In this document: positions 1 to 9,715 of the stretch, one piece after another | Position numbering within the stretch: the stretch's first letter is position 1 | Layout: each line of letters starts with the position of its first letter | Source of the DNA: a virus | Taxonomy: Duplodnaviria > Heunggongvirae > Uroviricota > Caudoviricetes | Direction: 5' to 3' (one strand) | IMG/VR virus record: IMGVR_UViG_2713897054_000020 | DNA length: 9,715 nucleotides | The notes under the pieces: generated by a model | The model's input: only the letters and a program-made list of their open reading frames with translations | Told to the model about the DNA's origin: nothing | Databases searched by the model: none | Made by a program: the position numbers and the translations under genes

Positions 1-282
1 TTATCGCCGTAACCGCTCCGGCTTCTTCCAGTGGTACGTAATTTTTTCTTTCTCCCGATACAGTTCAACGCGGCGATTGTAGGCCAGCATTTCCAGAACG
101 CGGATCCGTATGTCGCGCATATCCACGCCGTTAAGCTCAATACCGTCACGGCGCATCACCTCAGCAACCACACGCGCATAATTTTCGGCGGTCACGCTGT
201 CCGGCTGCGTGGCCTGTTCGTCAGCCTGCTGGCTGATTCCGGCAACGCGACGGATTAATCGCAGTAGTTCGGCTTCTGTCAT
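1..282 (-). CDS. hypothetical protein (93 aa), gene immediately beyond cos-1
   Basis: Complete minus-strand ORF: ATG at 282-280 preceded by a G-rich SD-like stretch, stop TAA at 3-1 at the window edge. Co-oriented with the rpp-like gene. No motif recognised. Confidence 0.45.
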   Translation of the reverse strand: MTEAELLRLIRRVAGISQQADEQATQPDSVTAENYARVVAEVMRRDGIELNGVDMRDIRIRVLEMLAYNRRVELYREKEKITYHWKKPERLRR

Positions 283-317
283 TGTGCCCCCATCGTTCTG
301 ATAGTCTGGTGTCGTCG

Positions 318-520
318 GGTCCTTCCTGGAATTATGGCCCGTTACGGGGCGGCGACCTCGCGGTTTTTATCTGTTTATGAAAATTTTCCGGCAAAAGTCA
401 GATCCGTTCTTCTTCTCTGTAACAGACTGTTTAAAAATGAAAATATTAAAAAAAGAAAGGATCTGACACGAGGCATTTTAGCCAGAAAATGTCATTATCA
501 GATCCTTTCTCATTTTTGTT
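318..520 (+). other. lambda-type cohesive-end site (cos-1): cosN core plus cosB-like R-site array
   Basis: 339-363 CCGTTACGGGGCGGCGACCTCGCGG matches the lambda cosN region as I recall it (12-nt cohesive end GGGCGGCGACCT = 347-358), followed by TTTATGAAAATTTTCCGG as in lambda. Downstream are three copies of an 8-mer, TCAGATCC at 398-405, inverted GGATCTGA at 459-466 and TCAGATCC at 498-505, with an A-rich tract between them (about 430-455), mirroring the lambda R3-I1-R2-R1 layout. Confidence 0.75.
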
Positions 521-537
521 CAATAATTGCGCGTCTG

Positions 538-1080
538 TTACTCGCCTTTCTTCTGTAGTAACTTCTCCGGTACGTCTCCGGTAGTTTCCATCAGGTAATC
601 AGCCAGTATCTGCGGGAGGTTGTCAGCAACTCCTGCGCAAGCATTACAGGCTTTAACCACTTCCTTTTTAAGTCCATCCAGCATAGCGGGGGTCATCTGT
701 GGGAAGCTCCTTTGCATAGTAAGCGGGAGGCTGTCCATGATTGATGAAATCTGACTCGCCAGTTTTGAAAGCGCGTACATGCAAAACTCTGTATCAATCA
801 CGTCACCGCGATCGCGCTCGTTTTTAAGTTCCTGCGCCTCTGCCTGTGCTGTCAGTAATCTGATCCTGACTCGTAAAAGTTCATCATCATCAATCTCACC
901 TTTGCCGTTTGTAAGCTGGCTAATTGCATTGTTAACCCTATTGTCTATCACGCTGGCAACATCATAAAACGCCTCACGGCCTTTACGCTCAACGGGAGTT
1001 ACTCCCCACTTGTCGAACGCTGTCGCACTTACACGGCAGCTTTTAGCCATGTTTTTTTTGTTCATCAGGTGCGATTTCAT
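538..1080 (-). CDS. small terminase (lambda Nu1) homologue; likely Rpp-type packaging-redirection protein of cos-type PICIs
   Basis: 180-aa ORF. The C-terminal two thirds align with lambda Nu1 (RLLTAQAEAQELKNERD...DTEFCMYALSKLASQISSIMDSLPLTMQRSFP versus Nu1 RLTRAQADAQELKNARD...ETAFCTFVLSRIAGEIASILDGLPLSVQRRFP). The N-terminal DNA-binding region is diverged (NKKNMAKSCRVSATAFDKW versus NKKQLADIFGASIRTIQNW). Flanked by cos sites. The start could be the ATG at 1080 or the in-frame ATG at codon 6 or 11. Confidence 0.85.
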   Translation of the reverse strand: MKSHLMNKKNMAKSCRVSATAFDKWGVTPVERKGREAFYDVASVIDNRVNNAISQLTNGKGEIDDDELLRVRIRLLTAQAEAQELKNERDRGDVIDTEFCMYALSKLASQISSIMDSLPLTMQRSFPQMTPAMLDGLKKEVVKACNACAGVADNLPQILADYLMETTGDVPEKLLQKKGE

Positions 1081-1187
1081 TAATACACCAACTTAATTAC
1101 TGCTTCAGGTTGGTGTATTGCTTGCATCTTTCCCTTTTTATTCATAAAGATAGAGCAAACAACAAAACCACCACCACCACCCTGAAA

Positions 1188-1254
1188 AAGCTCATAAATA
1201 GCGAAAAACCGCGAGGTCGCCGCCCCGTAACGGTCCATATGCCGGAAAGGACCC
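1188..1254 (-). other. second cos-like site (cos-2), inverted relative to cos-1, upstream of the rpp-like gene
   Basis: 1209-1233 CCGCGAGGTCGCCGCCCCGTAACGG is the exact reverse complement of the cos-1 cosN 25-mer. About 65 bp is shared with cos-1 at roughly 85 percent identity, including the flank TTTTTCGCTATTTATGA on the minus strand, which matches lambda. Read on the minus strand the order is cosN, a cosB-like region, then the terminase-homologue gene, i.e. the lambda arrangement. Confidence 0.65.
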
Positions 1255-1256
1255 GT

Positions 1257-1279
1257 AAAAAAAGCCGGATTTCTCCGGC
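1257..1279 (-). terminator. rho-independent terminator after the capsid operon
   Basis: Stem GCCGGA (1264-1269) pairs with TCCGGC (1274-1279) around a 4-nt loop. An A7 run at 1257-1263 gives a U7 tail on the minus-strand transcript. Lies directly after the stop of the 137-aa gene (1285). Confidence 0.6.
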
Positions 1280-1284
1280 CTGTC

Positions 1285-1698
1285 TCAGATGGTTTTCAGT
1301 ATGCGATCGATGTCGCCGTCATCGCCCGGGTTTCTGCCATCGTATGCCATGCCAGCTGATACGGCTTGCGGGCTGTGCATGTCCATAAAGTTTTCAAAGG
1401 CTGCGGTAAGCTCCGGCGCAACCCTCGGACGTTCCTGCTCTATGGTCATGCTAAGGATGCTTTTAGCCGTACCAACATCGATACAAGGCACGTTTGCCAT
1501 TGCACGTAACAGCGGCTGATAGTCGCCAGATTCATCAAGCGCCATAATCGCATCAGCGCGCGGCTTGTCCTGCTCTTCCAGTTTGTTAAGTTGATATATG
1601 GCCTCGTAGGTTGATAACCCTCTGTCAGCCATTGCCCGCGCTTCGGCTTTAAATTTACTCGCCAGCGGTAGCGTCATGATGCTTTCATTCGTTGCCAT
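1285..1698 (-). CDS. hypothetical protein (137 aa), last gene of the capsid operon; possibly an assembly or scaffold-type factor
   Basis: Minus-strand ORF, ATG at 1698-1696, 12-nt gap after the gpD-like gene with a G-rich SD. Acidic, Ala-rich, predicted helical. No motif recognised; the scaffold suggestion rests on position only. Confidence 0.55.
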   Translation of the reverse strand: MATNESIMTLPLASKFKAEARAMADRGLSTYEAIYQLNKLEEQDKPRADAIMALDESGDYQPLLRAMANVPCIDVGTAKSILSMTIEQERPRVAPELTAAFENFMDMHSPQAVSAGMAYDGRNPGDDGDIDRILKTI

Positions 1699-1710
1699 CG
1701 TTCCCCCTGC

Positions 1711-2046
1711 TTATCGGGCCAGCGGCTGAACGGATACGCCAGAACCCGCAAAGGCGGCGCATTTTTTCGCATCGGTGTCGACGCTCTCAGGCCAGTTAAC
1801 GGCGGCAATATTGAATATCCCCGTCTTGTAACACTGTGCTGATTTCTGCTTTGACGTGTCCACAGGATACGAAGTCAGATAAACAGCCTTGCCAGATTCC
1901 TGACCATCCCACGGCTTAAACTCGCCATTGTCCGCCAGCATCAGCGGGGTAAATTCCTGAATAACGCCAGCATCAGCGGCAAAATGTACCAGCGTCGTGG
2001 CGACCTGCTGACTGCCTGCGAATAACTCAATGTATGGAGTGTCCAT
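1711..2046 (-). CDS. head decoration protein, lambda gpD homologue
   Basis: 111 aa, about the size of gpD (110 aa). Blocks TPLMLADNGEFKPWDG and WPESVDTDAKKCAAFAGSGVSV align with gpD TPLMLDTSSRKLVAWDG and [30 protein letters not shown] upstream of ATG 2046-2044. Confidence 0.85.
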   Translation of the reverse strand: MDTPYIELFAGSQQVATTLVHFAADAGVIQEFTPLMLADNGEFKPWDGQESGKAVYLTSYPVDTSKQKSAQCYKTGIFNIAAVNWPESVDTDAKKCAAFAGSGVSVQPLAR

Positions 2047-2057
2047 AGAATCCCCCG

Positions 2058-3113
2058 TTAACCAATTTTGACGGTAACAAATTTGCGAATATCTGCCGGT
2101 ACCGGCTGCGGTGCGCTGTGTGTCTGCACGTACTCAATCGCCGGATCGCCGTCCTCAATCCAGTTTTTCGGGTAGTACATGTTTTGCGTTGCGCCCGTTC
2201 TGACCGCTTCCTGATCCATAATCGCACCATAGGCCACCAGGCCTTTATTGTTGGTGTTACCCAGGACCAGTAAATCAGGCTCAAGGAAATATTTTTCGGT
2301 GCCGTCGCTGTCAGCGTATTTGCCGGAATAGACGATAAGGGCAATATCGCCCAGATAGCCTTTAAAGCTCACCACTTCGCCCAGGTTTTTACAGGCCAGT
2401 TCTGCGGCGGATTCTGAACCACGGGAAAGATCGTACAGCTCACGGAATTTTTTAAAGCTGCGTAACGTGCGCCATACCTCAGCGCCCATAATCATGACGT
2501 TTGCGGGGCAACCAGCCTGATCAGCATAAAGCTCGATGTCATAGATTGGGTCGTGCATCTCTTTATCCTGCTCGGACCATTTTTTACCCTTGGCCTGCTC
2601 TATGATGCAGTTTTCCGGTATTTTCCAGTCTATTTCATAGCGTTCTATGCCTTCGCCCTCAATAATGTTTTTTCCGGTCGTTATCGCATTCACCGCTAGC
2701 CATTCCACGCGCGCTTTAATGGCGTTTACCTGGCGGCGCATGTTGCCAGTAATCAGGCGCATACGTCGGTAGGTAGGGTCGTTAAGCTGTGCCGGATCTT
2801 CTCCAGCCATGCGCATGATGGTTTTTGTTGGATCGATTTCGTGCTTTGGCTTCATGTAGCCAGGTTTAATCGTGCTGGTTTCGTATCCTTTATCGCGCTG
2901 TACCTGGCTGCCAACCATAGGCGAACAAAACGCCGACATGGTGACTTCTTCAATGTCCAGGGTATCCAGCATGATGTTTTGGGTGCTGAATGTCGCCACG
3001 TTCGGGAAAAACAGCGTGGTAAACAGCGGACTGAATTTAAATTCCGCAATATCCCCGCGATTCAGGTACGCAAAAAGCTGGTTAGTGTTAAGTGCCGTTG
3101 CTTTGCCTGCCAT
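2058..3113 (-). CDS. major capsid protein, lambda gpE family
   Basis: 351 aa versus gpE 341 aa. Conserved blocks run across the whole length: EFKFSPLF, PGYMKPKHEIDP, EDPAQLNDPTYRRMR, KGYLGDIALIVYSGKY, LVLGNTNNKGLVAYGAIMD and YPKNWIEDGDPA, against gpE KFKFDPLF, PGYVKPKHEVNP, EDPQNLADPAYRRRR, KGMYGDVAIVVYSGQY, MVLGNTQARGLRTYGCIQD and YPKNWVTTGDPA. The start overlaps the upstream stop (TAATG). Confidence 0.9.
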   Translation of the reverse strand: MAGKATALNTNQLFAYLNRGDIAEFKFSPLFTTLFFPNVATFSTQNIMLDTLDIEEVTMSAFCSPMVGSQVQRDKGYETSTIKPGYMKPKHEIDPTKTIMRMAGEDPAQLNDPTYRRMRLITGNMRRQVNAIKARVEWLAVNAITTGKNIIEGEGIERYEIDWKIPENCIIEQAKGKKWSEQDKEMHDPIYDIELYADQAGCPANVMIMGAEVWRTLRSFKKFRELYDLSRGSESAAELACKNLGEVVSFKGYLGDIALIVYSGKYADSDGTEKYFLEPDLLVLGNTNNKGLVAYGAIMDQEAVRTGATQNMYYPKNWIEDGDPAIEYVQTHSAPQPVPADIRKFVTVKIG

Positions 3114-3556: not shown

Positions 3557-3967
3557 TCAGAACGGAATATCATCACCGTAGGGGTCATCGTCTCCCGCTG
3601 GTGGCTGATTACCCTGTGCGCCTGTGGTTTTGCGTCTGTTCCCGCCAGGACGTGCCGCACGGGCACTGATTACGCTGTCTGCAATAACCTGATAACCCTG
3701 CCGCGTTTCCCCGTTCTGTCCGGTCCACTGGCTTATCTGCATCACGCCAGATATGCTGGCAACGTCGCCTTTTTGATGTTTAGCCAGGAAGTCGGCCTGC
3801 TTACCAAATGCCATCACCGATAGCCATAACGTAGCCGTTCCGTCATCTGCCTGGCTGCACGGAAGGGGGACCGCCATACGAGCCAGCGTCATTGGTGTGC
3901 CCTTGCTGGTCTGTTTTACCTGCGGGTCGTCCACCAGCCGCCCGTAAGCGGCTATCTGTGCCGTCAT
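3557..3967 (-). CDS. ssb: single-stranded DNA-binding protein
   Basis: 136 aa. OB-fold core blocks GRLVDDPQ and WLSVMAFGKQADFLAKHQKGDVASISG parallel E. coli SSB GNLGQDPE and [28 protein letters not shown]. Gly/Pro-rich linker and an acidic C-terminal tail ending DDIPF, as in SSB. The ATG overlaps the upstream stop (ATGA). Confidence 0.85.
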   Translation of the reverse strand: MTAQIAAYGRLVDDPQVKQTSKGTPMTLARMAVPLPCSQADDGTATLWLSVMAFGKQADFLAKHQKGDVASISGVMQISQWTGQNGETRQGYQVIADSVISARAARPGGNRRKTTGAQGNQPPAGDDDPYGDDIPF

Positions 3968-4233
3968 ACTGCCCCCTCTCCGGTTTTAACGTTGATGGTT
4001 GTTACCTGTTCCGCTTCGGCAATCTCCCGTTCTGTCAGCGTGGCAAAGTTTGCCGCTGCTGTGGTCATGAATGCGCTTATCAGGTCGGGATGTTCCTTCG
4101 CGTATCCTTCCCCCGCGTGGCGGTCTATTACCCTGATTGCTACCTTTAAGGCGTGCTCTGTCATGTCTAACGCTTTATATTTTGGCTCTGTTCTGTCTCT
4201 GCGCATTTTGGTTATCTCCTCACTCATGCTCAC
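3964..4233 (-). CDS. hypothetical protein (89 aa) between the origin and ssb
   Basis: ORF translationally coupled to ssb through an ATGA overlap. The start is either GTG at 4233 (SD GAGG 6 nt upstream) or ATG at 4227. No motif recognised. Confidence 0.5.
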   Translation of the reverse strand: MSMSEEITKMRRDRTEPKYKALDMTEHALKVAIRVIDRHAGEGYAKEHPDLISAFMTTAAANFATLTEREIAEAEQVTTINVKTGEGAV

Positions 4234-4420
4234 TTTTGCGCCTCACTTTTTAAAGAGTCTCGCTTCGTCTCACTTGATATTTTTGATGTTTTTATGTGCA
4301 TGTTTCATAAGGATTTTTTTACTCCTCACTTTTTGGGGTATATATACGTTGAAAAGTGAGGAGTTCAGGGGGTTTTTCGTTCAATTACTCATTGTCCTCA
4401 CTTTTGCGCCTCACTTTTTA
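4229..4420. repeat. putative replication origin: iteron array with an AT-rich inverted-repeat core
   Basis: Two perfect 24-bp direct repeats CTCACTTTTGCGCCTCACTTTTTA at 4229-4252 and 4397-4420. The sub-motif CTCACTT(TT) occurs at least six times on the plus strand and once inverted. A 12-bp inverted repeat CTCCTCACTTTT (4322-4333) / AAAAGTGAGGAG (4351-4362) flanks the AT-rich spacer TGGGGTATATATACGTTG. Sits immediately 3' of the replication helicase gene. Confidence 0.6.
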
Positions 4421-5827
4421 CAGAGGGCCTACATCATCACCGTCGATATAAATAACCCCGTCTTTTTCCAGCTTGCGTAGCCAGCGGCTGAAGTTTTTCA
4501 TTTCGTACCCCAGCTTTTTCATATCGTCACGTAACAGCGGGATCGTGCACTTGTCGCCGTGCTGTGTGCGTGACCGGATACATCCCCATAGCGCAGCATG
4601 ATTCTCCGTCTTGTTGCCAGCCTCTTCGATGCGCTCCAGTTCAACGGGAGGACGCGGCTTATCCACCACCACCAGCGACGTGATTAACTCCCCGTCAGCG
4701 TCGGTAAAAAGCTCCACCACCCGCAAATCATAGGCAGCCTCTTTGAGTTCCTCCGCGTCCTTCATTTTGGTGCATGAGATAACCAGCGCTTCGCTTCCTG
4801 CGTCCTCCCTGCGTATCCGGTATTCAGCGTCCAGTGATGCACGAAATGCACTGGAACCACGCGCCCCCTTTGTTTCATCCTTGCCGGAATGGTGAACCAC
4901 CAGCACCGTAGCCCCTGTGCGCCGTTTAAGCTCGTCACAACCACGGATAAATGCCCCCATGTCGCGGGAGTCATTTTCATCATTGCCGCCAAAGCAACGC
5001 GCCAGCGTGTCCAGAATAATCATGCGAACAGGTTTACCCGTTTCCCTCTCCACCTGACTGGCAGCAATAACCAGTTCATCAACATCAAGCGGGACAGCCG
5101 GAAAGATGGGACGGTTTACCAGATACAGATTTTTCACCTGCTCACCGTGCACAACCTCCCAGGCTTTTACACGACGCGGAACGCCGATACCGCCTTCACC
5201 AACCACATAGAGAACAGCGCCATGCGCCACCCTGCGGCCTCCCCACTGGCGGCCCGTGGAAACGTGACACGCCCACGATCCGGCAAGGAATGATTTATAG
5301 GAACCGCTCGCCCCGTATATGCTGCAAAGCGACGATGCCGGAATAATCCCCTTTACCACGTAATCAAGCTGTGTGTCGTATCCGGTAGATCCAACGCTCA
5401 TCGGTAGCGTGGTTTTTCGCTGGGGAATTTTTTTCATGACCAGGCTTTCCCCGCGTTCCCATGCCTCCCTAAGCCGTGGAAGCTGGTCGCTCCATTCCTC
5501 CAGCAATTCGAAATTTTCAGAAAGTAGCCGCGCCTCCTGGACTCCGGCGATCGCCAGTTTCGTGGCGATGGTTAACAGCTGCGGCTCTTCAATATTTCCG
5601 GCGCGTATCACCGTCGCCCTGTATCGCCCATCATCAACAATCTGGAGGTTATCCAGTTCGCTTAACTGATAACGCCCCAGATAAACGGGAGGGACTGGAT
5701 CGCCTGCTTTTTTGGCCTGTGCAATGATGTAATGCTCTGCGAATGAATGAGCATCAATACCCGCAAAAATAATCGCATCGGTGTATTTATCTTTCGGTAA
5801 TAGTTTTACGTTCGGTGCCAGTTTCAT
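4418..5827 (-). CDS. replication initiator/helicase, RepA/DnaB-like RecA-fold ATPase (AAA_25-type)
   Basis: 469 aa. P-loop-like GASGSYKS, Walker B-like VRMIILDTLARCFGG, and a helicase H4-type motif ATVLVVHHSGKD. An N-terminal domain of about 170 aa and a C-terminal domain of about 70 aa are unassigned. SD AGGGGT; the ATG overlaps the upstream stop (ATGA). Confidence 0.85.
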   Translation of the reverse strand: MKLAPNVKLLPKDKYTDAIIFAGIDAHSFAEHYIIAQAKKAGDPVPPVYLGRYQLSELDNLQIVDDGRYRATVIRAGNIEEPQLLTIATKLAIAGVQEARLLSENFELLEEWSDQLPRLREAWERGESLVMKKIPQRKTTLPMSVGSTGYDTQLDYVVKGIIPASSLCSIYGASGSYKSFLAGSWACHVSTGRQWGGRRVAHGAVLYVVGEGGIGVPRRVKAWEVVHGEQVKNLYLVNRPIFPAVPLDVDELVIAASQVERETGKPVRMIILDTLARCFGGNDENDSRDMGAFIRGCDELKRRTGATVLVVHHSGKDETKGARGSSAFRASLDAEYRIRREDAGSEALVISCTKMKDAEELKEAAYDLRVVELFTDADGELITSLVVVDKPRPPVELERIEEAGNKTENHAALWGCIRSRTQHGDKCTIPLLRDDMKKLGYEMKNFSRWLRKLEKDGVIYIDGDDVGPL

Positions 5828-8473: not shown

Positions 8474-9715
8474 CTAAACGGCTCGGATACCCCTTTTACC
8501 ACTGGCGAGGGTTACGCCCGTCGCCGCAGCCTCGACAAATTCGCCCCACCAGCGCATAAGCACGATGCGTTTTTCTATGTAGTTGCTCCGGTTGTATGCC
8601 CGTCTGACTTCGTTGGTGTCGACGTGGGCAAGTGCGGCCTCTATTACGTCTGGCTCAAAGCCTTCTTCGTTCGCTGCTGTGCTGAATATGGCGCGTAATC
8701 CATGAGACACCAGCACGCCAGCGAATCCCATGCGTCGTAATGCTGCGTTAGCGGTCTGGCTGTTCATCGGCTGCTGTGGGTCTTTCAGACTCGGGAAAAC
8801 ATAATCGCGGTGGTGGCTGATTGGTTTCATAGCCTCCAGCACTGCCATAGCCTGGTCACAAAGCGGGATAACGTGGTCGCGGCGCATCTTCATGCGTCCG
8901 GCGGGTATGGTCCAGCGTTGCGCTTCCATGTCGATTTCTTCCCAGCGTGCCGACGATGCTTCAACGGGACGGGTTACGGTCAGTAACTGCCATTCAATCA
9001 GTAATCTGGTCTGCCGTTCTGTTGCCGATACTGATAAAGCCTGCATAAGCTCCGGCAGCTGTTCGGGGCGGATTGTTGGCATATGTTTTTTTACAGGGGA
9101 GGGGAACGCCTTACGCACATTCATAGCCGGATTGGCATCAATCATCCCACTATTGGCGGCGTAATCCATTACCTCATTTATACGCTGTAAAACTCGCTTG
9201 AGCGTTTCCAGGTTGCCACGTTCCTTGATGGGGGTAAGCACCTCAACGAACCTGCGAGCGGTCAGGGTGTCTATTGGCGTGTTGCCGATGAACGGGAATA
9301 CATATTTTTCCAGCGATCGCCAGATGTCTTTAATCGTATTGGGGGCCAGATTCTGGCTGATTTTCACCTGGTACCATGCTGTTGCCACATTTTCGAACGT
9401 GTTCCCTTGTCTTCGGGCCTCTGTCTCTCTTTTTTGCCTCTCGTGGTCCTGCGGGTCAGTTCCGGCACGAATTAACGCCCTGTACTCGCTACGGCGTTTT
9501 CTGGCATCAGCCAGGGAAACATCATCAAGCGATCCAAAACTCAGCAATATTCTTTTTTTGTCCGATGGTCGGTAGTAGGAAAATCTCCAGAGTTTTGATC
9601 CGGACGGTTTGATCAGGAGAAAAAGCCCTCCGCCGTCCTGTAGGGTGTATTCCTTTTCTGCTGGTCTGGCTGCTTTGATCTGTACTGTGGTTAATGGGGG
9701 TGTTTTTCTCGCCAT
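8474..9715 (-). CDS. int: tyrosine site-specific integrase, P4/CP4-57 family
   Basis: 413 aa. The N-terminal arm-binding region LTTVQIKAARPAEKEYTLQDGGGLFLLIKPSGSKLWRFSYY matches the P4-type integrase pattern (DGGGLYL..KP.GSK.WRF.Y). The C-terminal catalytic region carries HGLRA, HVIPLC and a late RRAYNRSNY segment that probably holds the catalytic Tyr. The ATG is the last three bases of the window, so the promoter and attachment site lie outside it. Confidence 0.9.
   Translation of the reverse strand: MARKTPPLTTVQIKAARPAEKEYTLQDGGGLFLLIKPSGSKLWRFSYYRPSDKKRILLSFGSLDDVSLADARKRRSEYRALIRAGTDPQDHERQKRETEARRQGNTFENVATAWYQVKISQNLAPNTIKDIWRSLEKYVFPFIGNTPIDTLTARRFVEVLTPIKERGNLETLKRVLQRINEVMDYAANSGMIDANPAMNVRKAFPSPVKKHMPTIRPEQLPELMQALSVSATERQTRLLIEWQLLTVTRPVEASSARWEEIDMEAQRWTIPAGRMKMRRDHVIPLCDQAMAVLEAMKPISHHRDYVFPSLKDPQQPMNSQTANAALRRMGFAGVLVSHGLRAIFSTAANEEGFEPDVIEAALAHVDTNEVRRAYNRSNYIEKRIVLMRWWGEFVEAAATGVTLASGKRGIRAV

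Follow-up and report, generated by a model that had tools for sequence, protein, structure and literature searches.

Two convergent lambda-type cos sites flank a small-terminase gene in an EcCICFT073-family island: a probable dual-specificity packaging signal

We analysed a 9,715-nucleotide stretch of viral DNA (IMG/VR record IMGVR_UViG_2713897054_000020, here called the window) and found that its packaging module consists of two lambda-type cos sites, facing each other on either side of a gene for a Nu1-family small terminase. We consider it probable that this module is a dual-specificity packaging signal, that is, two convergent cos sites flanking a small terminase that belongs to the satellite itself. 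The window shares its gene order with the island EcCICFT073, where rppA takes the place of the terminase gene, and on this basis it is a phage-inducible chromosomal island (PICI) of the EcCICFT073 family; EcCICFT073 serves as the model for Gram-negative PICIs. The two-cos layout itself is already known from EcCICFT073 (2018-2019); judged from its genes, the window represents a variant with a true small terminase in place of an Rpp protein. We refer to the site just upstream of the terminase gene as the proximal site and to the site beyond its 3' end as the distal site. A preliminary description of the window called these cos-2 and cos-1, respectively. Mapping of the published supplementary sequences showed that the published names run the other way: published cos.1, our proximal site, runs into rppA and matches in position and orientation, while published cos.2 starts with TCGTCGGGTCCTTCCTGGAATTATGGCCCGTTACGGGG, which is the flank of our distal site.

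Results

Anatomy of the two cos sites

A repeat search of the window returned inverted arms of 59 nt at 333-391 and 1181-1239 (86% identity) and further inverted arms of 17 nt at 316-332 and 1239-1255 (82%), which a 1-nt indel offsets from the first pair. Taken together the imperfect arms measure roughly 76 bp, and they enclose a perfect inverted repeat of 30 bp, established by direct reading and centred on the lambda cohesive-end sequence (Table 1). The identical 25-bp core reported in the preliminary description (339-363 and 1209-1233) is contained in this perfect repeat. The 29-mer CGTTACGGGGCGGCGACCTCGCGGTTTTT occurs exactly twice in the window, at 340-368 on the plus strand and at 1204-1232 on the minus strand. 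No match to it was found in 200 shuffles of the window with 3 mismatches allowed, which places the repeat far beyond chance. Each copy contains the 12-nt cohesive-end sequence GGGCGGCGACCT, the same as in lambda and phage 434. When both copies were aligned to the cos sequences of lambda-type phages, Gifsy-1 and PhiR5_1, a lambda-type anatomy was apparent in each. Both copies are complete cos sites, each with cosQ, cosN, I2 and cosB, and their cosB flanks differ, as the preliminary description had proposed.

The distal site has the tripartite cosB of lambda-like phages, with R3, an inverted R2 and R1 near +50, +108 and +151 from the nick; these are the lambda-style R-site repeats that the preliminary description had correctly noticed beyond cos-1. 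The three boxes are identical to those of Gifsy-1 and unlike those of lambda. The same three boxes come after a lambda cosN in a prophage of E. coli strain 2D, where this cos immediately precedes the genes for Nu1 and the large terminase. The stop codon of the window's terminase gene (538-540) falls at +192 to +194 from the distal nick, where the phage Nu1 start would be at +190, which indicates that the phage cos was retained as far as the expected beginning of the phage gene. Read from its boxes and spacing, the distal site is a complete, near-verbatim phage cos of the class found in Gifsy-1 and E. coli lambdoid prophages.

The flank of the proximal site looks different at first sight. The preliminary description found there an (ACC)5 run and a 9-bp inverted repeat instead of R-site repeats. 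The run is present at 1167-1181, and the inverted repeat is real too, with arms of 10 bp (1083-1092 and 1109-1118) and not 9 bp. That these elements stand in place of R sites did not hold up: they lie at or near the lambda R3, R2 and R1 positions. The R3-like and R2-like boxes occupy the positions of lambda R3 and R2, the R2-like box being inverted, and the R3-like box GGTGGTGGTGGTGGTT, which is the (ACC)5 run read on the opposite strand, shares its position with, and is related to, the R3 of N15 (bp 48-59, GAGGTTGTTGTT; PMC4669245). From this arrangement, the run and the arms of the inverted repeat are most likely R sites of another specificity. The common proximal box (GGTTGGTGT or GGTGGTGGT) departs from the N15/Monarch box GGTTGTTGT at one or two bases, which parallels the N15-like character of the terminase encoded next to it. 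All 30 classified terminase-type proximal cosB sequences keep ACACCAACC. Most relatives retain the GGTGGTGGTT part of the R3-like box, and its G-rich 5' part is polymorphic. At the DNA level the proximal cosB had no phage match: blastn against phage records matched only cosQ, cosN and I2, up to about +50. As a separate observation, the (ACC)5 or G-rich tract at 1166-1181 of the window and in L010, L025, L019 and L085 occurs in the variants GGGTGGTGGTGGTGG, GGGGGGTGGTGGTGG, GGGGGGGGGGGTGGG and GGGTGCTGGTGGTGG; recognition might be adjusted through slippage in this putative R3 box.

The gene between the sites

The product of the only gene between the sites, a homologue of 175-180 aa, matched the Pfam family Phage_Nu1 at 4.9e-23 (82 bits against a cutoff of 30). 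Over its full length it is 46% identical to N15 gp1, its closest phage relative, 41% identical to the Nu1 of PhiR5_1 and 34% identical to that of Gifsy-1. Its short linker is shared with N15, its putative recognition helix is similar (VSATAFDKWG, compared with ISVQAFDKWG in N15), and the alignment showed that it retains the C-terminal segment that in lambda Nu1 binds the large terminase. Rpp proteins have been argued to lack this segment (Murialdo and Feiss, PMC9026076). The preliminary description had called the gene rpp-like, an identity that we rejected. BLASTP against RppA gave E = 1.2 and no RppC match was obtained from the PDB even at E <= 10, while RppA itself matched the RppC structure 6HLK at 5e-31. 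RppA, RppB and RppC are also shorter, at 139-154 aa. The PDB sequence search with the terminase homologue returned neither an Rpp nor a Nu1 chain even at E <= 10. From the full-length Nu1-type match with its C-terminal segment, together with the lack of Rpp similarity, we infer that the island would supply its own small terminase and not an adaptor.

Dual specificity and its alternatives

Lambda-like terminases discriminate more than 10^3-fold between cosB classes at initiation, yet terminate at any cosQ, cosN and I2 of the right polarity (PMC4669245). We propose that the satellite terminase would bind its own proximal cosB and recruit the large terminase of the helper, with packaging running toward lower coordinates. 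At the distal site, the unmodified terminase of a helper of matching class would initiate in the opposite direction. The two sites would thus offer two routes into capsids and a broader helper range. A second cos in direct orientation would end packaging early and an inverted one would not, which may be the reason for the strictly inverted layout.

The sister element provides the functional precedent. Two cos sites with lambda cosQ and cosN and different cosB have been published for EcCICFT073 (Fillol-Salom et al. 2018, PMC6092414; 2019, PMC6739421), and either one, when cloned, makes a plasmid transferable by lambda and phi80 (PMC6092414, PMC6739421). Deletion of cos1 lowered transfer of the island, deletion of cos2 raised it, and deletion of both abolished it (Fillol-Salom et al. 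2018, PMC6092414). The phage small terminase is a binding partner of RppA; of the two cosB, their complex recognises just that of cos1, as cosB swaps showed (PMC6739421). The suggestion in the preliminary description that the two sites are recognised by different terminase complexes fits these data, since in EcCICFT073 both sites support transfer and only the gene-proximal cosB responds to the satellite protein (PMC6092414, PMC6739421). That both sites are functional and that the proximal one alone responds to a satellite factor is thus a property of EcCICFT073 and would apply to the window by analogy; the binding partners in the window's own element, and the selective reason for its layout, we infer.

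The same experiments bear on a decoy function, another suggestion of the preliminary description. In the form considered here, the distal phage-type cos, multiplied by island replication, would titrate the helper small terminase and so contribute to interference with the helper. The distal site does carry the full R-box set of a helper class, and many copies of it would be expected after the island replicates. Interference by EcCICFT073, however, maps to rppA and is lost on deletion of rppA alone, and deletion of the distal-equivalent site raises transfer. Moreover, the cloned EcCICFT073 site is productively packaged and is no dead end, and the distal site is missing from some otherwise intact relatives. 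A decoy is accordingly the most improbable of the explanations that we weighed. Packaging of host DNA in situ (lateral packaging) from two outward routes was also set aside, because packaging from cos requires that another cos in the correct orientation lie within capsid range.

Several points weigh against dual specificity. Deletion of the distal-equivalent site in EcCICFT073 raised transfer by lambda and by phi80, and with these non-matching helpers the site is a cost (PMC6092414). In the window the R1-like box of the proximal site lies about 20 bp nearer the nick than lambda R1, just before the gene, and it is degenerate in some relatives. A scan found no sigma-70 consensus promoter upstream of the terminase gene, a result that is uninformative and not a true negative. 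Eight of the 63 related modules described below are of the terminase type with the proximal site only, the distal cos being absent. Finally, cutting and binding in the window's own element are predicted from sequence, and cutting in EcCICFT073 is deduced from transfer assays.

Related modules

A search of genome contigs for related loci, first with the terminase homologue and then with the capsid protein, yielded none that was confirmed. We fetched 80 IMG/VR loci using the 137-aa gene that flanks the module as the anchor, and 63 of these hold the whole module. Two cosN in convergent orientation, with the cosB sides inward, were found in 50 of the 63 and two cosN in direct orientation in none. 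Among the convergent modules, 22 carry the terminase gene, and their distal cosB is of the Gifsy-1 class in 10, of the 21/PhiR5 class in 11 and unclassified in 1. A further 19 carry RppA, with a distal cosB of the PhiR12 class (11) or of the N15/Monarch class (8). The remaining 9 have no gene between the sites, and in these a PhiR12-class and an N15/Monarch-class cosB stand back to back. These gene-free modules, with two phage-type cosB, fit dual specificity without a satellite factor. Individual distal alleles could be traced further: the distal cosB of the island in Nissle 1917 has CATGTCG boxes and resembles PhiR5_1, those of two loci resemble CFT073 phage 4, and the GGTTGTTGT boxes of another allele have the sequence of N15 R3 (bp 48-59, PMC4669245).

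The distal site is not universal. Absence of the second copy from related elements, which the preliminary description had taken as a sign of a recent neutral duplication, was seen in the eight proximal-only modules, where the flanking gene follows directly after the terminase gene; the distal site is therefore dispensable. This brings in a second explanation, in which recombination with helper phages at the conserved cosQ-cosN-I2 segment left the distal cos behind as a by-product that is functionless, neutral to mildly harmful, and repeatedly gained and lost. The absences are in its favour, as is the higher transfer after deletion of the equivalent EcCICFT073 site. The near-identity of some alleles to phage cos (98.4% to PhiR12) likewise suggests recent capture. 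A functionless by-product, on the other hand, sits poorly with a distal site that is intact in 50 of the 63 modules, with cosQ, cosN and three exactly spaced R boxes, and of which we saw no decayed copies. The site is always inverted and never direct, which suggests selection on the layout, and gene-free modules still hold two phage-type sites. We regard a by-product as unlikely, and dual specificity as the better account.

Five of the 63 modules have a single site with a variant cosN. In L015, L016, L017, L020 and L086 (~3940-4310) the lone cos has PhiR12-like boxes and another cosN (GGGCGGGAGCGG…), and it is followed by a frame that starts VATQTEVARHLSLTDRQLRRLQ, is reminiscent of a helix-turn-helix (HTH) protein, and runs toward the homologue of the 93-aa gene at the distal flank. 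Outside this set, L093 (NZ_CM143727.1) and L095 (NZ_CP178694.1) are other E. coli loci with SSB, ProQ/FinO and PerC genes and a related distal-type cosB, which in L093 adjoins a reversed small-terminase gene. This gene content hints at similar cos modules in another island lineage.

Natural inversion of the segment between the sites

The preliminary description had pointed out that inverted repeats could support inversion of the segment between them, and for each of the three cassette types we found complete E. coli genomes in which this segment is flipped. Many of the counts that follow are clonal; they are counts and not rates, and the variation they describe is variation between genomes. 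For the terminase type, the window with 364-1208 inverted was used as the query against complete E. coli genomes. Five genomes matched it end to end in a single piece, compared with 491 complete E. coli genomes that carry window positions 1-1700 colinearly. Two of the five were examined base by base. In both, the terminase gene lies on the strand opposite to all of its neighbours, cosN connects the cosQ flank on the side of the 93-aa gene with the terminase-type cosB, and the flank on the side of the 137-aa gene is connected with the phage-type cosB. Such exchanged junctions place the crossover inside the shared core. The two islands differ in integration site and in distal cosB class, and they thus represent independent events. 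For the RppA type, 15 genomes matched the inverted CFT073 module in one piece, of about 83 with that cos1 region; in one of these the island occupies the site used in CFT073 and encodes the same RppA protein accession on the opposite strand. For the gene-free type, the 512 bp between the cores of L063 and L065 are 99.6% identical as reverse complements and 63.7% identical in the same orientation, while the left flanks are 100% identical; among complete genomes, 3 have the L063 state and 43 the L065 state. The gene-free modules L063, L075, L076 and L077 and L065, L067, L072 and L074 (~3977-4512) hold this 512-bp stretch in either orientation.

We judged an assembly artefact to be an unlikely source of these inversions. 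The genomes are complete and come from different projects, the two cases read base by base differ in integration site and distal class, and reads of ordinary length should span a 30-bp exact repeat.

The window has no dedicated invertase: the sole gene between the cos sites is the terminase homologue and the sole recombinase is the integrase at 8474-9715. Flipping could occur by recombination between the short inverted repeats. It could also occur if, while the helper grows, terminase cut both cosN and the released fragment re-annealed either way round; by the chemistry of lambda ends, both ends of the fragment would carry the same 5' GGGCGGCGACCT overhang and could re-anneal in either orientation. 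In several relatives the cosQ-side flanks have been homogenised. Both copies in L002 (3316-3340 and 4233-4257) are alike and of the CCTGGAATTATGG type, and the same homogenisation is seen on the proximal flanks of L018, L021, L025, L037, L045, L046 and L054; the pattern suggests gene conversion or repeated recombination between the arms. Since homogenisation of cosQ-side flanks is impossible by cutting at cosN, ordinary recombination or gene conversion must act at least sometimes.

It is a further step from these inversions to a function. We think it quite unlikely that the segment between the cosN sites is a recombinase-free invertible cassette, with its crossover at the terminase cutting site, whose flipping would reverse both packaging polarity and the orientation of the gene relative to the upstream operon and so give rise to subpopulations that differ in packaging behaviour. 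Very doubtful, too, is an explanation of the whole module as an invertible switch, in which a flip, by homologous recombination or by terminase cutting and re-annealing, would reverse packaging polarity or change the expression of the terminase or rpp gene relative to the upstream operon, again with subpopulations of differing packaging behaviour. A switch would account for the occurrence of both orientations in complete genomes in all three types (5 versus 491, 15 of about 83, 3 versus 43), for junctions inside the shared core in the two terminase-type genomes read base by base, for at least 2 independent terminase-type events, and for an RppA element known in both states with the same site and protein accession. 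The terminator-like hairpin upstream of the module, together with the lack of a consensus promoter, also hints at orientation-dependent expression. Yet the window is without a dedicated invertase, the inverted state is a small minority with many clonal counts, and the homogenised flanks call for ordinary recombination or gene conversion and not for cutting at cosN. Two intact cos sites are present in either state, and a flip may therefore be neutral.

The island and its neighbouring genes

E. coli O91 RM7190 has a locus, integrated beside tRNA-Pro and yejM, that matches all 9,715 bases of the window at 100% identity. From the RM7190 annotation and synteny with CFT073, the island has an integrase, an AlpA-type regulator, a replication gene, a packaging module, a specific attachment site, a mostly unidirectional gene arrangement and a length of about 10 kb, as in PICIs of the EcCICFT073 family. 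The main genes are all on the minus strand. Capsid and decoration genes are present, and we recognised no portal, protease or scaffold gene in the window; capsid genes are common in such islands and dispensable for transfer (preprint 10.1101/2022.07.18.500453). The conserved 93-aa gene at the distal flank adjoins the module in EcCICFT073 and in the 63 IMG/VR loci, and it had no Pfam match. We also noticed a 52-aa reading frame that crosses the proximal cosN and cosB (1080-1238, minus strand). Its counterpart at L087:1834-1992 carries the annotation 'hypothetical protein' in one inverted genome; the frame at 1080-1238 is probably not a gene.

Table 1. Coordinates of the packaging module and neighbouring features in the window. 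Offsets with a plus sign are counted from the nick of the respective site.
Feature	Position	Strand	Remarks
Whole distal cos	316-536	+	
cosQ heptamer GGGTCCT, distal	317-323	+	offset from nick same as that of annotated phage 434 cosQ (47964-47970 of 47993)
cosN core, distal	339-368	+	perfect 30-bp copy; GGGCGGCGACCT at 347-358
I2-like spacer, cosN to R3 (…TTTATGAAAATTTTCCGG…)	359-398	+	from alignment with lambda-type, Gifsy-1 and PhiR5_1 cos
R3 CAGATCCGTTCT	399-410	+	+53 to +64; phage 434 R3 annotated at 50-65
R2 AGAAAGGATCTG, inverted relative to R3 and R1	454-465	+	+108 to +119; phage 434 R2 annotated at 108-123
R1 CAGATCCTTTCT	499-510	+	+153 to +164; phage 434 R1 annotated at 151-166
Small-terminase homologue (Nu1 family, N15-like)	538-1080	-	annotated 'terminase small subunit'; likely true start ATG at 1065
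R1-like box GTTGGTGT	1085-1092	-	+134 to +141; one arm of 10-bp inverted repeat
R2-like box ACACCAACC, inverted	1108-1116	-	+110 to +118; other arm of 10-bp inverted repeat
R3-like box GGTGGTGGTGGTGGTT	1166-1181	-	+45 to +60; (ACC)5 run on plus strand
cosN core, proximal	1204-1233	-	perfect 30-bp copy; cohesive-end sequence at 1214-1225
cosQ heptamer GGGTCCT, proximal	1248-1254	-	1 nt nearer nick through a 1-nt deletion
Whole proximal cos	1254 to ~1081	-	same orientation as terminase gene, like lambda cos and Nu1
Conserved 93-aa hypothetical gene	1-282	-	distal flank of module; open reading frame, RefSeq hypothetical protein
Terminator-like hairpin and T-run	1262-1281	-	between 137-aa gene and proximal cosQ; from consensus scan only
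Conserved 137-aa hypothetical gene	1285-1698	-	proximal flank of module; open reading frame and RefSeq annotation
Lambda gpD-like decoration protein	1711-2046	-	Pfam 1.3e-17
Lambda gpE-like capsid protein	2058-3113	-	Pfam 4.6e-51
HTH regulator, RepA-type helicase, SSB		-	in this order from integrase side toward capsid gene
Integrase	8474-9715	-	

Discussion

Each of the two sites can be assigned to a recognisable class of packaging specificity, and the distal sites closely copy cos regions of real phages. One and the same specificity gene occurs with distal sites of differing class, and some relatives have two phage-type sites but no specificity gene. This modularity suggests a swappable two-site cassette that determines the helper range. 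Such a cassette bears on the spread of islands that carry virulence or defence genes in E. coli lineages, including O157:H7 and Nissle 1917, and on how PICI-based delivery vectors are designed. In addition, the natural inversions show that a terminase cutting site can be the crossover of a DNA flip. In the literature that we searched we did not find the inversion polymorphism, the mapping of both flanks to cosB classes or the modular combinations. These three results bear on a question that the field had left open.

The closest known system is EcCICFT073. The order of capsid gene, decoration gene, 137-aa gene, cos, specificity gene, inverted cos and 93-aa gene is common to both elements, and the published cos.2 flank is nearly identical to the distal flank of the window. 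The cos sites in CFT073 are also inverted, with arms of 77 nt (82%). Orientation or inversion of the sites is not mentioned in the main text of PMC6092414, of PMC6739421 or of the review by Murialdo and Feiss (2022, PMC9026076), and the main text of that review does not mention the second cos site. The two elements differ in the gene between the sites, which encodes the 144-aa RppA in EcCICFT073 and a 180-aa N15-like Nu1 with a C-terminal region resembling the terminase-binding one in the window. They differ as well in their distal cosB, which is of the PhiR12 class in EcCICFT073 and of the Gifsy-1 class in the window. Over 123 nt, the cosB of EcCICFT073 cos2 (L006:9515-9705) and the cos of PhiR12_1 (L092:1477-1670), which sits between Rz and Nu1, share 98.4% identity. 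This match revises the published claim that the island has no identifiable phage cosB.

With lambda-like phages (lambda, 21, N15/Monarch and Gifsy-1) the window shares cosQ, cosN, I2 and a tripartite cosB with an inverted R2, at the same coordinates. In these phages packaging specificity is set by the R boxes and the recognition helix of the small terminase (Feiss et al. 2015, PMC4669245). Where the phages have one cos followed by Nu1 and a large terminase gene, however, the window has two convergent cos of different classes and no large terminase gene. The pac-type Staphylococcus aureus pathogenicity islands (SaPIs) encode their own small terminase and use the large terminase of the helper (summarised in 10.1101/2022.09.08.507074). 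The window is predicted to resemble them in this division of labour, with a DNA-recognition subunit encoded by the satellite. Unlike the pac-type SaPIs, which use headful pac packaging and an unrelated small-terminase family, its system is cos-type, has a terminase of the Nu1 family and is paired with a second, helper-type site.

A satellite-specific recognition box, R3-PICI, has been proposed at bp 48-65 from the nick (Murialdo and Feiss 2022, PMC9026076), and the GGTGGTGG run of the window at +45 to +60 is in keeping with this proposal. The proposal concerns Rpp-type sites and a single box, whereas the proximal site of the window adds R2-like and R1-like boxes. Finally, the segment between the cosN sites resembles the Mu G, P1 C and Salmonella Hin segments in being short, bounded by inverted repeats and found in both orientations. 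It differs from them in having no dedicated invertase and in that the crossover region is the terminase cutting site itself.

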